64,000 nt of DNA, from the sequence record OQ721909; one strand, given 5' to 3'. Position 1 is the first letter of the stretch. Every line of letters begins with the position of its first letter. The stretch comes from Escherichia phage vB_VIPECOOM01. Under the pieces are notes generated by a model. The model searched no databases. It saw nothing but the letters and a program-made list of their open reading frames with translations, and was not told the DNA's origin. A program made the translations under genes and the position numbers. Below are positions 31,863-42,742 of this stretch, one piece after another.

Positions 31863-31895
31863 GTGTTTCCTTTAAATATTTTAATTAGTAACTGT

Positions 31896-31930
31896 GAATA
31901 TACTATCACAGTTCTAGAAGAAAGTAAACA
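31896..31930 (-). promoter_or_regulatory. early promoter upstream of ipIII
   Basis: GTTTAC -35, TGTGATAGTATAT -10; near-duplicate of denV promoter. Confidence 0.6.
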
Positions 31931-31943
31931 ACTTTATAGATTT

Positions 31944-32474
<531 letters not shown>

Positions 32475-36444: not shown

Positions 36445-36470
36445 CAAAAAGCCCTATCATTTAGATAGGG
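36445..36470 (-). terminator. rho-independent terminator
   Basis: CCCTATC-TAAAT-GATAGGG hairpin followed by CTTTTTGG on minus strand. Confidence 0.6.
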
Positions 36471-36478
36471 ATTTAAAA

Positions 36479-37042
36479 TTATTTATCTAGTTTAGTTATT
36501 ATAGCTTCTGCGGCAGCTTTTAGCTTAGATGCGGTGTTAATACGATTTTTAATTTCAGTATACGCATCGCCAAGAACATCAAGGCTATCAGAATAAACAC
36601 TTACACTATTGCGTTCGCTATTTGAAATAGAACCTTTAGTTTTACGATCAAAATCGGTGTACACGTCTTGAAGATCACGGGCTGCCTTCTTTGCATCATC
36701 CAATGCGTCAAGAGCTTTATTCAAAGCATTAACGTATTTTTTAGTGTCGAACATATTCTTAGAAATTTTAACAGGTGCGCGTTCAGGAGTAGCTAATGCA
36801 GATTTAGGAACCTGAGCGCCAGATGCCAATTTCTTAGAAATTTTGAAAAACGCTTTATTGAATTTATTTTCTTGACTCATCGTAAAAGAACTATTATCGA
36901 TGTTGTACATTTCAATAGCTTTAGCTTTCCACTTAAGAAAATCGCCGCGGTCTTTTGGGTCCAAGTGGAAGAATACTTTAGTAAGATCTGCTTCAGATGG
37001 TAATTTTGCTGCTTCGGTTAAAAATTCGGCATAGGTTTTCAT
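36479..37042 (-). CDS. putative capsid-targeted internal protein (CTS leader, 187 aa)
   Basis: N-terminal MKTYAEFLTEA matches internal-protein leader with L-x-E cleavage site; flanked by terminator hairpins. Confidence 0.6.
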   Translation of the reverse strand: MKTYAEFLTEAAKLPSEADLTKVFFHLDPKDRGDFLKWKAKAIEMYNIDNSSFTMSQENKFNKAFFKISKKLASGAQVPKSALATPERAPVKISKNMFDTKKYVNALNKALDALDDAKKAARDLQDVYTDFDRKTKGSISNSERNSVSVYSDSLDVLGDAYTEIKNRINTASKLKAAAEAIITKLDK

Positions 37043-37131
37043 TTAAAATCCTTGAAATGATTTATCAGTTGGTTATTAATTATTTATTACTTTGCTATTA
37101 TCTGCAGCAGCATTCTCTATGTGATTCAAAC

Positions 37132-37160
37132 TAAAAAGCCCCGACCGAAAGGTCGGGGCT
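37132..37160 (-). terminator. rho-independent terminator
   Basis: AGCCCCGACC-TTTC-GGTCGGGGCT hairpin followed by TTTTT on minus strand. Confidence 0.75.
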
Positions 37161-37167
37161 AAGAATG

Positions 37168-37641
37168 TTATTTGATTTGTTTAGCAGACCAAATGCGGTC
37201 TTTAATAATTTTTTGGATGTCTTCAACATACTCTAGGTCATGAGCATGTGGGTTATCTTTGAAACTATAAGCACGAGCTAGTTTTTGGCCTTCAGTTTTG
37301 ATTACTAAAAGCTCTTTAAGGATAGCTTCATATTTAGCGATAATTCCTTTAACAATATTTTTTTCTTGTGCAACTTTAGGATCTGCTTTAGGAGCAGGTT
37401 TACCCGAAGCCTTTGCAAAAGCAGCGCCAGTAGCAACTAAACTTTTCCAGGCCATACTAACTGCATTTCCTGTAAATCCTTCTGCTTTCATGTCGCGGGC
37501 AAATTGGAATCGTGATTCGTCAGAAGCATCTTTATAGGAATATTTACCCGCTGCAATGGCTGCTTTTGCGACAGCTTGAATTTCGGTGCTAGATGCTTCA
37601 TTTAACACCGCTTCATTTAAAAATTGAGCATATGATTTCAT
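37168..37641 (-). CDS. putative capsid-targeted internal protein (CTS leader, 157 aa)
   Basis: N-terminal MKSYAQFLNEA; TATAAATA late promoter upstream and terminator downstream. Confidence 0.6.
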   Translation of the reverse strand: MKSYAQFLNEAVLNEASSTEIQAVAKAAIAAGKYSYKDASDESRFQFARDMKAEGFTGNAVSMAWKSLVATGAAFAKASGKPAPKADPKVAQEKNIVKGIIAKYEAILKELLVIKTEGQKLARAYSFKDNPHAHDLEYVEDIQKIIKDRIWSAKQIK

Positions 37642-37680: not shown

Positions 37681-37688
37681 TATTTATA
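37681..37688 (-). promoter_or_regulatory. late promoter (TATAAATA) upstream of CTS-protein gene
   Basis: Plus-strand TATTTATA; gene start at 37641. Confidence 0.6.
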
Positions 37689-37689
37689 C

Positions 37690-37718
37690 TAAAAAGCCCC
37701 AACCTTTCGGTCGGGGCT
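37690..37718 (-). terminator. rho-independent terminator ending the tRNA / small-RNA transcript
   Basis: Near-duplicate of the 37132-37160 hairpin followed by TTTTT on minus strand. Confidence 0.7.
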
Positions 37719-37719
37719 A

Positions 37720-38029
37720 AGCCTTGCGGCAACCTTGTCGGGGTTCCACCTGCTAAGGCAAGTGTTTGTACGAAACGCCGGGATTCGAACCCGGTTATTA
37801 AGCAGTTGACGCTACTCAATATTTTTAAAAGGCCATATCTCGACCATATCCGAACGTTCCGTCAAAAACGCTACTCGGCTTACGGCAAAGATATTTCCTC
37901 GAATCGATAATTCGGTGCGCCGTTTCTGCTGTGATGTAAGGGGATATTAACAAATCGTAAAGATTTATTAAGACCAGTCCTTACGCAGGGAACATCAGTC
38001 CGACGACTTACCGGTAGCGACCCGGTTTC
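37720..38029 (-). ncRNA. candidate small stable RNA(s) downstream of tRNA cluster (T4 RNA C/D equivalent)
   Basis: ~310 nt non-coding stretch between 116-aa ORF and terminator; contains tRNA-like T-arm ACCGGGTTCGAATCCCGG. Confidence 0.3.
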
Positions 38030-38380
38030 TTAATATTCTTTTAAAGCATCAATTTGTTCACGGCGTTTACGCCATAAATCAATTGCTTCATACGCAGATT
38101 CAGCATTTCGAATTGGACGGCATTTATATAAAGACTTATGATTTTGATATTGTGTAGATAACGGAATTTTATCTAAAAGGTCTTTACGTTCAAAATATTC
38201 GTAACCATCTAAACCAAATGAACGATTTTTGAGAAATTGCCAATGACCGTATTCGTTTTCGACATAAACATAATCCGCGTGTTGATAAAGCAAATTAATT
38301 ACACGTTCAGAAATAACAGTGTCATTGTGATTAAAATAAAATGTTAAATCATGAACTACTAAATAAACATTACCTTTCAT
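38030..38380 (-). CDS. hypothetical protein
   Basis: 116 aa ORF with GAGGAA RBS immediately downstream of tRNA-Arg. Confidence 0.5.
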   Translation of the reverse strand: MKGNVYLVVHDLTFYFNHNDTVISERVINLLYQHADYVYVENEYGHWQFLKNRSFGLDGYEYFERKDLLDKIPLSTQYQNHKSLYKCRPIRNAESAYEAIDLWRKRREQIDALKEY

Positions 38381-38929: not shown

Positions 38930-39412
38930 TTATTTTATGTAATATTTATTTAAAAACTTTCTAGCTTGAGTATGGCTAACATTTATAGCGTTTGCATAAT
39001 TTTTAATAAAACCTCGTTCATCCATATTAAAATTTTCTAATATTTTTAATCGTCTAATTATCTCATCTTGGCTTAAGGTACTTGCATTATTTTTAGAAAT
39101 TTTTTCTAAAGACTGCACTGAGTGTTTTCGACCATTAAAATTAAAATTTTTAGGTTTTGGAGGAAATCTATCATTTAGTCTCGCATCTTTTGTATTTTGA
39201 TTATTAGTTGCGCAATATATGTTATTTAATGAGTATGGTCCTTTATCACCAAAACGACACATACAGTATTCATGACCCTTTCTTCCACGCTTATCATAAT
39301 TTCCCGTTGATTTCCACCAATTCAACCACTCATCAAAAGTTAAATTCCATTCAATGTTTCTACGTATAGCAGAATTCCGCTGAGAAATATATTTTGCATA
39401 ATCTTCTTTCAT
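38930..39412 (-). CDS. putative HNH-like (His-Me finger) endonuclease inserted between tRNA subclusters
   Basis: 160 aa basic protein; HEYCMC ... NNIYCATNNQN spacing suggestive of HNH; position equivalent to T4 segB. Confidence 0.4.
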   Translation of the reverse strand: MKEDYAKYISQRNSAIRRNIEWNLTFDEWLNWWKSTGNYDKRGRKGHEYCMCRFGDKGPYSLNNIYCATNNQNTKDARLNDRFPPKPKNFNFNGRKHSVQSLEKISKNNASTLSQDEIIRRLKILENFNMDERGFIKNYANAINVSHTQARKFLNKYYIK

Positions 39413-41414: not shown

Positions 41415-41648
41415 TTATTTTTTACGAAAAATTGATTTATTTTCTGCTGCCCATTTTTCAATAACTGCAGCAGGACCAGTAACAACAATTTTATCACCGT
41501 AATCTTCTGCGGCGAGTTGACCGAAATTATCTAATGCATCACGAAGAACTCCATGAGGCATTTCACCCATTTTATCTTTCTTGCCGGTGTAAATAAACTC
41601 AACTTTTACATCAGAAGATTCAGCGATAAACTCTTTGAAAGTTTTCAT
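41415..41648 (-). CDS. ipI: Internal protein I-like capsid-targeted protein
   Basis: 77 aa from MKTFKEFIAES leader; early promoter upstream; position matches T4 ipI. Confidence 0.6.
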   Translation of the reverse strand: MKTFKEFIAESSDVKVEFIYTGKKDKMGEMPHGVLRDALDNFGQLAAEDYGDKIVVTGPAAVIEKWAAENKSIFRKK

Positions 41649-41680
41649 TTTAGTTTCCATTCGATTGTTTTGTTTTGATA

Positions 41681-41735
41681 GGGTAATAATATCACAACTA
41701 AAACCCTATGTAAACAACTTTGTGAAATTATTTTA
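41681..41735 (-). promoter_or_regulatory. early promoter upstream of ipI-like gene
   Basis: UP element, GTTTAC -35, TGTGATATTATTACC -10. Confidence 0.6.
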
Positions 41736-41985
41736 AATCTTCTAATCGTTTCTTCATCTTAGAACCATTTTTAGCAATTTCTCCTGCATCGGAGCATAAT
41801 GCTAAAAGTGCTTTAACTTTCGTTTGGTCTCCTTTAAAAGATGAAGGATCTACTGCAGCAGCAAGTTCTTTAATACGAGAGAAAAGACGCTCAGCTTCAG
41901 CTAAAGCCATTCCAAGCTTTACTTCCATACCGTGGGAAGATTCAGTGATAGTAGTTTTTGTAGCAAACTCTTTGAAAGTTTTCAT
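41728..41985 (-). CDS. hypothetical protein with partial CTS-like leader
   Basis: 85 aa; N-terminal MKTFKEFATKTTITESS; own early promoter. Confidence 0.5.
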   Translation of the reverse strand: MKTFKEFATKTTITESSHGMEVKLGMALAEAERLFSRIKELAAAVDPSSFKGDQTKVKALLALCSDAGEIAKNGSKMKKRLEDLK

Positions 41986-42011
41986 TTTATTTTCCTAATT
42001 AATTTTGATGA

Positions 42012-42742
<731 letters not shown>

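Follow-up and report, generated by a model that had tools for sequence, protein, structure and literature searches.

Do the two unnamed open reading frames (ORFs) between gene e.8 and the tRNA/rnaC operon of Escherichia phage vB_VIPECOOM01 encode proteins that are packaged in the phage head and enter the host with the DNA? The stretch analysed here (sequence record OQ721909, 64,000 nucleotides; hereafter the window) belongs to a Tequatrovirus, and its section 36300-37800 matches Escherichia phage vB_VIPECOOM03 at 100% identity and many T4-like phages of coli, Shigella and Yersinia at 96-98%. Both ORFs, here termed ORF-A and ORF-B, are present where an initial annotation had placed them, on the minus strand with ATG starts, and a Shine-Dalgarno sequence precedes each. 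We think it likely that both belong, as yet unnamed, to the T-even internal-protein (IP) class and are packaged and injected; their leader is statistically indistinguishable from those of accepted IPs, and they appear as two cassettes, each bounded by terminators, at a third ip locus past the tRNA/rnaC operon. The kind of protein is itself known; neither the two families nor their locus has been annotated, and we found no description of them in the literature.

The leader peptide and its conservation

Leader resemblance was scored over the first 11 residues of 478 Met-starts, comprising all those in the window with at least 50 codons after the Met, with seven accepted IPs as references (IPI, IPII and IPIII of T4; IpIII, IpIV, IpV and IpVI of PST). 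The IpV-like, IpII, IpVI-like and IpIII proteins of the window scored 51-56, ORF-A 48 and ORF-B 36, whereas the remaining 472 Met-starts scored no more than 23 (background mean 1.2, standard deviation 8.5). The likeness to the ipII and ipIII leaders that the initial annotation had pointed out is therefore borne out, and it is not due to chance. Leader-bearing genes in the window number six, namely ipII, ipIII, the IpVI-like and IpV-like genes at the ipI locus, ORF-A and ORF-B, rather than the five that the annotation had implied. Four of the six fall into PHROGs labelled 'internal virion/head protein'; ORF-A and ORF-B are both assigned to phrog_2280, 'unknown function'.

In all six leaders an [L/I]-x-E site ends at residue 10, so the prohead-protease context previously ascribed to ORF-A and ORF-B is present in both. 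As a motif, the gp21-type cleavage context reads FLTE-A in ORF-A and FLNE-AVLNE-A in ORF-B, the latter having a second L-N-E that ends at residue 15. Because the conserved mature N-terminus seen in the ORF-B family alignment, ASS[ST][DE][IV], starts beyond this second site, the final cut in ORF-B probably falls after Glu15. The tandem site is due to a five-residue insertion that is absent from the Mosigvirus and RB27-type homologues; a double [LI]-x-E also occurs in gp154 of Tegunavirus fHe-Yen9-01 (FLKE-SLISE) and in the metagenomic protein P0027 (FLNE-SEMINE).

Among homologues the leader peptide is constant while its codons are swapped synonymously (TAT/TAC, GAA/GAG, TTA/TTG/CTA, TTT/TTC), and the peptide is conserved across five genera. 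The adjoining A-like and B-like genes of fHe-Yen9-01 begin MLQYNEFLKES and MLEYSEFLKEL and have in common the variant ML[QE]Y-x-EFLKE. An exhaustive HMMER search with ORF-A over 1.84 billion representatives returned one remote homologue, P0027 (31% identity, pairwise E 4e-13), encoded on metagenomic contig L006 (logan:SRR28624380_555336) with the leader MITFNEFLNES; the gene after it begins MITFKQFLNES, with six synonymous codon differences between the two leaders. Because the peptide stays the same while synonymous codon changes set apart both homologues and neighbouring genes, the leader appears as a selected peptide module and not as a DNA scar. The lineage-specific variants are what would be expected if the leader must fit each phage's own scaffold and protease, and they suggest such a fit. 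Further, the A/B leaders form a sub-type of their own, because in fHe-Yen9-01 this pair has ML-x-Y while the canonical IPs have MK[TS]Y.

The body of that second L006 gene is unrelated to P0027. It encodes a 144-amino-acid ART-PolyVal/DUF3990 ADP-ribosyltransferase (L006:2092-2526, plus strand, phrog_4700; 45.4 bits versus a cutoff of 31.2), directly 3' of the ORF-A homologue. This enzyme, being leader-tagged, is probably injected and recalls T4 Alt.

These patterns bear on the proposal that recombination within the IP pool left the leader behind as a vestige, and that ORF-A and ORF-B act in the cytoplasm as accessory proteins without being packaged or injected. Conserved regulatory and leader sequences do serve as recombination sites by which IP loci shuffle (PMC4122927). 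A vestige, however, would be expected to decay, yet the peptide has been kept over five genera, with synonymous codon turnover and with co-variation in unrelated adjacent genes, a pattern that a decaying scar of recombination would hardly produce. We consider this explanation very unlikely.

Genomic site, distribution and expression signals

The genes of the window run in the order ipII, ipIII, e, nudE, e.2-e.8, ORF-A, ORF-B, rnaC/rnaD, the tRNA cluster, tRNA.2-4, the IpVI-like and IpV-like genes and 57B. The earlier placing of the two ORFs outside the classical ip set thus holds in a stronger sense, as their site, flanked by e.8 and the tRNA/rnaC operon, is distinct from both the ipII/ipIII locus and the ipI locus. 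The corresponding e.8-rnaC interval of T4 is 284 nucleotides long and contains no gene, and the PST site is likewise empty. By alignment with T4, the insertion begins directly past the rnaC terminator (37718-37695), which is conserved in T4 and directly followed there by the e.8 upstream region, and it ends past the ORF-A terminator, where T4 homology resumes. We read the e.8-rnaC site as a third ip locus; recent work names 'the two Ip loci' only (PMC12373910).

A 40-nucleotide direct repeat (37682-37721 and 37124-37163, 83% identity) brackets ORF-B, the terminator repeats also hold an inverted pair with 96% complementarity, and the ribosome-binding site and leader form a 42-nucleotide repeat common to both ORFs (76% identity). 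Indels flanked by recurring stem-loop terminators within a hyperplastic region, together with the bracketing of ORF-B by the 40-nucleotide terminator repeat, resemble the promoter-early/stem-loop (PeSL) cassettes of T4-like phages, reportedly described in 2010 by Arbiol and in 2014 by Comeau. They differ in lacking the sigma-70-like early promoter that defines a PeSL: behind the stem-loop comes a late promoter for ORF-B and no clear one for ORF-A. Membership of the PeSL group was rejected, as no GTTTAC-type early promoter was found after the stem-loops.

In a set of 50,697 phage records, ORF-A was carried by 163 and ORF-B by 510. Annotations were checked in 60 records per family, sampled across the ranking, and every annotated copy was a 'hypothetical protein' or had a similarly uninformative name. 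RB32ORF132c, RB14ncORF136c and RB69ORF149c are names for these same ORF families, none of which was named in the literature found. Close relatives show polymorphic presence or absence of single-gene cassettes: the locus is empty in T4 and PST; ORF-B stands alone in RB27, Mosigvirus SF, Jiaodavirus phiKp_22 and Winklervirus Kc304; ORF-A stands alone in Shigella phage CT01; and both are present in the window, SA21RB and RB14, as well as in fHe-Yen9-01 with their order reversed. ORF-B is syntenic at one site in at least five Tevenvirinae genera, and in other genera homologues at the same locus have identities as low as 24-50%. Chance ORFs or mis-called genes, an explanation that has only the universal 'hypothetical protein' label in its favour, are effectively excluded by this conservation: the ORFs are intact with a Shine-Dalgarno sequence in 163 and 510 phage genomes, the divergent homologues occupy the same locus, and AlphaFold2 (AF2) predicts folded helical domains.

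In the CT01 variant of ORF-A (L010:2501-2989) the Pro/Lys linker is cleanly deleted, with a loss of 25 residues (KLASGAQVPKSALATPERAPVKIS region). ORF-B contains an A7 run in the 37335-37345 region ('CAAGAAAAAAATATT'), and truncated forms, ending directly after '...AQEK', occur in independent records or clusters (vB_Eco_F26, SfPhi01, P0017, P0019, P0020 and L009:1951-2286). The A7 frameshift reflects either real recurrent inactivation or homopolymer sequencing error.

With respect to expression, a perfect TATAAATA of ORF-B lies directly past the rnaC terminator, the same feature being annotated in SA21RB, and this late promoter is the only one of ORF-B. Upstream of ORF-A there is AATAAATA plus a weak sigma-70-like site (9/12), and ORF-A transcription may depend on read-through. 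The description of the two genes as insulated units consequently stands in part: each has its own terminator (36470-36452 and 37160-37137) and ORF-B a perfect late promoter, but ORF-A has only the degenerate octamer and the weak site. Elsewhere in the window, GTTGTTTAC-type early promoters lie upstream of the ipIII, IpVI-like and IpV-like genes (31863-31972, 41649-41758 and 41986-42095, respectively), and no perfect late octamer TATAAATA was seen within 200 nucleotides of these three genes; ipII showed neither an early promoter nor a late octamer in the 110 nucleotides examined. The leader genes may therefore comprise two groups that are timed differently. For ORF-B, a perfect late promoter directly past a terminator is the timing of a virion component and argues against a vestigial leader.

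Mature proteins and possible functions

The T-even class is said to comprise T4 IPI-III and a polymorphic IpIV-IpVI set, as described by Repoila and colleagues in 1994, by Black, and by Comeau and Krisch. ORF-A and ORF-B resemble IPI-III and IpIV-IpVI in an MKT[YF]-x-EF-type leader ending in an [LI]-x-E gp21 site, in being small, non-essential, present or absent in close relatives and carried as terminator-bounded single-gene cassettes, and in being basic and Cys-free (as IpII and IpIII) with mutually unrelated bodies. They differ in occupying the third locus, in belonging to a PHROG of 'unknown function' without being labelled IP in the sampled records, in the late promoter of ORF-B as opposed to the T4 early promoters of the window's ipIII, IpV-like and IpVI-like genes, and in the ORF-B family being syntenic over at least five genera and not hyper-plastic; their packaging, moreover, is a prediction. 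Nor is their size unusual, as had been suggested by the term 'two large' genes, IpIII having 192 amino acids.

Predicted mature ORF-A has 177 amino acids, a mass of 19.7 kDa and an isoelectric point (pI) of 9.46; predicted mature ORF-B has 147 amino acids if cut after Glu10 or 142 if cut after Glu15, about 16 kDa, and a pI of 9.40. Both are basic, Lys-rich and Cys-free, as are IpII and IpIII (pI 9.6), with 24-32 Lys plus Arg. AF2 predicted the same layout for both proteins: the leader forms a short helix, some 55 residues then fold into an N-terminal domain of three helices, and a disordered Pro/Lys linker leads on to a long, antiparallel hairpin of helices (predicted local distance difference test score for ORF-B, 76.6), and the folded N-terminal domain is the conserved part of the ORF-B family.

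Full-length profile matches to phrog_2280 were obtained with ORF-A (E = 1.4e-53) and ORF-B (E = 7.3e-60), and Yen gp154, P0027 and P0022 also match this PHROG. The two ORFs were considered as paralogues and this was rejected, since BLASTP aligned the leader only and hhalign without the leader gave a probability of 0.7-1.9%; we do not claim homology between them, despite the common PHROG and the common predicted architecture. Searches of Pfam, NCBIfam and PDB sequences with the ORF-A and ORF-B bodies gave sub-threshold noise only, and Foldseek against viral models gave self-family matches only, with RB69ORF149c, an ORF-A homologue, and a 189-amino-acid protein of fHe-Yen9-01 as by-products. No enzymatic domain was found in ORF-A or ORF-B. 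As first reported, then, the mature bodies have no recognisable motif, neither profile searches nor structure comparison having given an informative homologue.

Proteins of this composition could be packaged for a physical role, such as neutralising DNA charge, ordering the condensate or filling the scaffold core, without a specific host target. The mature pI of about 9.4 and the Lys plus Arg content would suit such a role, and lysines of T4 internal proteins touch DNA phosphates (PMC3012670). The predicted fold, a generic helical hairpin with a disordered Pro/Lys linker, points the same way, as do an ORF-A sequence that scarcely varies and an ORF-B synteny that is broader and steadier than expected of a narrow-specificity inhibitor. 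However, both genes are missing from T4, PST and many other relatives, and ORF-B is absent or truncated in CT01 and F26; with so many phages doing without both genes, a general physical role is not required. In ORF-B, conservation of the folded N-terminal domain speaks for a specific interaction surface, and all three IPs of known function are specific enzyme inhibitors (PMC12373910). We regard a physical role as unlikely.

If ORF-A and ORF-B are instead packaged and injected as IPs with a host target, both would be made late, ORF-B from its own TATAAATA promoter and ORF-A by read-through and/or from its degenerate late promoter. The capsid-targeting sequence of about ten residues, MK[TS]Y-x-[EQ]-F-L-x-E, identified by leader identity, would dock each precursor on the prohead scaffolding core, where gp21 would trim the leader after Glu10, in ORF-B probably at Glu15. 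The mature proteins (~19.7 and ~16 kDa) would remain with the packaged DNA and be injected alongside it. In the new host they would act before phage gene expression, by analogy most likely through binding and blocking a host nuclease or another defence protein.

Ip1 was reportedly described as a GmrSD inhibitor by Bair in 2007, and to our knowledge it was the sole IP with a known target before 2025. Ip1, Ip2 and Ip3 are now established as inhibitors of GmrSD type IV restriction enzymes, each of a different one (PMC12373910). An anti-defence or anti-restriction role for ORF-A and ORF-B is proposed solely by analogy with Ip1-3. They would be comparable as pre-made proteins injected with glucosyl-hydroxymethylcytosine DNA in the same phage group and host-range context, and they differ in that neither their sequence nor their fold resembles IPI*, Ip2 or Ip3. 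A second comparison is with T4 Alt and other packaged gp21-processed enzymes, given that an ORF-A homologue lies beside the leader-bearing ART-PolyVal ADP-ribosyltransferase of L006, which indicates that such a leader also serves for enzyme delivery; it differs in that ORF-A and ORF-B themselves lack an enzymatic domain. A more elaborate picture, to which we give only a small chance, is that ORF-A and ORF-B represent an old, paired, two-domain helical class at a third injected-protein locus in at least five Tevenvirinae genera, acting jointly, for example via their hairpins, on injection or on a host function other than GmrSD, with the same leader system also delivering enzymes such as the ART-PolyVal ADP-ribosyltransferase.

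Evidence from virions comes from a related leader. In the Jiaodaviruses ValerieMcCarty03/04, an 'internal virion protein' (gp127/gp119) was detected in 2026 with 66 spectra in CsCl-purified virions (PMC13119998 Table 3). This protein is Ip4-like and begins MKTYQEFLNES, the same EFLNE leader type as ORF-B, and an 'EFLNE' leader on a protein abundant in purified virions speaks against the leader being a vestige. In the peptide-spectrum match table no spectrum covers the gp127/gp119 leader, the first peptide starting from residue 13 (PMC13119998 Data S2); the missing leader peptide is negative evidence only. In the same phage, gp125 of ValerieMcCarty03 (L011:8561-9142) is labelled 'putative IpIII internal head protein'; it starts MDSLHAPRNG... 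and has no IP leader, and the label is probably a mis-annotation.

The claim of capsid targeting made at the outset is well supported at the sequence level by the leader, the gp21 motif, the peptide-level conservation, the basic Cys-free bodies, the late promoter of ORF-B and the pattern of presence and absence, although virion mass spectrometry to accompany them was not found. A resemblance confined to the first 10 residues is no valid refutation, because Ip1-3 have only the leader in common.

Several observations nevertheless weigh against packaging and injection. No virion proteomics, processing or injection was found in the literature for the ORF-A and ORF-B families: their sequences are absent from the Silas 2025 supplements (PMC12373910), the papers on fPS-phages, Kc304 and LC53 contain no proteomics, and ValerieMcCarty03, the sole Jiaodavirus with virion mass spectrometry, has no ORF-B homologue. 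The two leaders have L at position 8 and T or N at position 9, where the canonical IPs of the same phage have I-A, and in the A/B homologues of fHe-Yen9-01 Lys2 is replaced by Leu while the canonical IpII and IpIII homologues of that phage keep MK[TS]Y; from this loss the A/B leaders might be a drifting relic. ORF-A has no consensus promoter. These three points, namely the literature result, the departure from canonical FIAE with loss of Lys2, and the lack of a clear late promoter for ORF-A, are also those that favour a vestigial leader. In addition, the bodies resembled no known anti-defence protein in sequence, profile and Foldseek searches; in 162 of the 163 records the identity of ORF-A is 95-99%, the gene varying by presence or absence and not by fast evolution; and ORF-B is frameshifted at the A7 run in several isolates.

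These additional IP members would come as no great surprise to a specialist. The remaining IPs are the next obvious set to test for targets, and the two families are found in 163 and 510 phages, many of them candidates for therapy or biocontrol, where they have been missed by annotation and lie outside 'the two Ip loci'. Their recognition extends the ip loci to three and supplies two candidates open to testing, with possible effects on host range. T2, T4 and T6 lack both genes and so offer natural gain-of-function recipients, enabling cheap and concrete experiments on an active question, that of which defences the remaining injected proteins disarm.

Feature coordinates and neighbouring observations

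Table 1. Position of ORF-A, ORF-B, their associated elements and the comparison genes in the window.
Feature	Coordinates	Strand	Remarks
ORF-A	36479..37042	-	ATG start; precursor 187 amino acids, N-terminus MKTYAEFLTEAAKL...
ORF-B	37168..37641	-	ATG start; precursor 157 amino acids, N-terminus MKSYAQFLNEAVLNEASS...
ORF-A leader, codons 1-10, MKTYAEFLTE	37013..37042	-	Predicted gp21 cut after Glu10
ORF-B leader, codons 1-15, MKSYAQFLNE-AVLNE-A	37597..37641	-	Tandem L-N-E site
One-mismatch late-promoter-like octamer AATAAATA	37081..37088	-	39 nucleotides 5' of ORF-A ATG
Perfect T4 late promoter octamer TATAAATA	37681..37688	-	40 nucleotides 5' of ORF-B ATG
Terminator-like hairpin and T-run past ORF-A	36452..36470	-	Downstream insertion end relative to T4
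Terminator hairpin between ORF-B and ORF-A	37137..37160	-	Near copy of rnaC-operon terminator
Terminator past rnaC, end of tRNA operon	37695..37718	-	Upstream insertion boundary, presumed recombination site
IpII, 100 amino acids	30873..31175	-	phrog_7857, internal virion protein; comparison gene
IpIII, 192 amino acids	31284..31862	-	phrog_5341; comparison gene
IpVI-like, 77 amino acids, ipI locus	41415..41648	-	phrog_8111
IpV-like, 85 amino acids, ipI locus	41728..41985	-	phrog_3499

Outside the window, the 52-100 kb section of fHe-Yen9-01 (L014) contains eight leader-bearing ORFs in 48 kb; one of them, of 52 amino acids and with the leader MKTYIEFINEI, lies two genes upstream of the A-like gene. 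No product in this record has a name other than 'hypothetical protein'. The Tegunavirus IP repertoire appears to be larger than that of T4.

Two further ORFs on the minus strand of the window lie among the tRNA genes. The first (38030..38380, 116 amino acids, phrog_3355 of unknown function, no Pfam match) is located between tRNA-Arg and rnaD; it is not in T4 but is present in F26 and CT01, and its homologue in Winklervirus Kc304 lies just upstream of the ORF-B homologue. tRNA-Thr, which relatives have, is not in the ARAGORN list for the window. The second ORF (38930..39412, 160 amino acids) lies in the tRNA cluster between tRNA-Met and tRNA-Ser, a position that differs from that of T4 segB, and may be a homing-endonuclease-type insertion.

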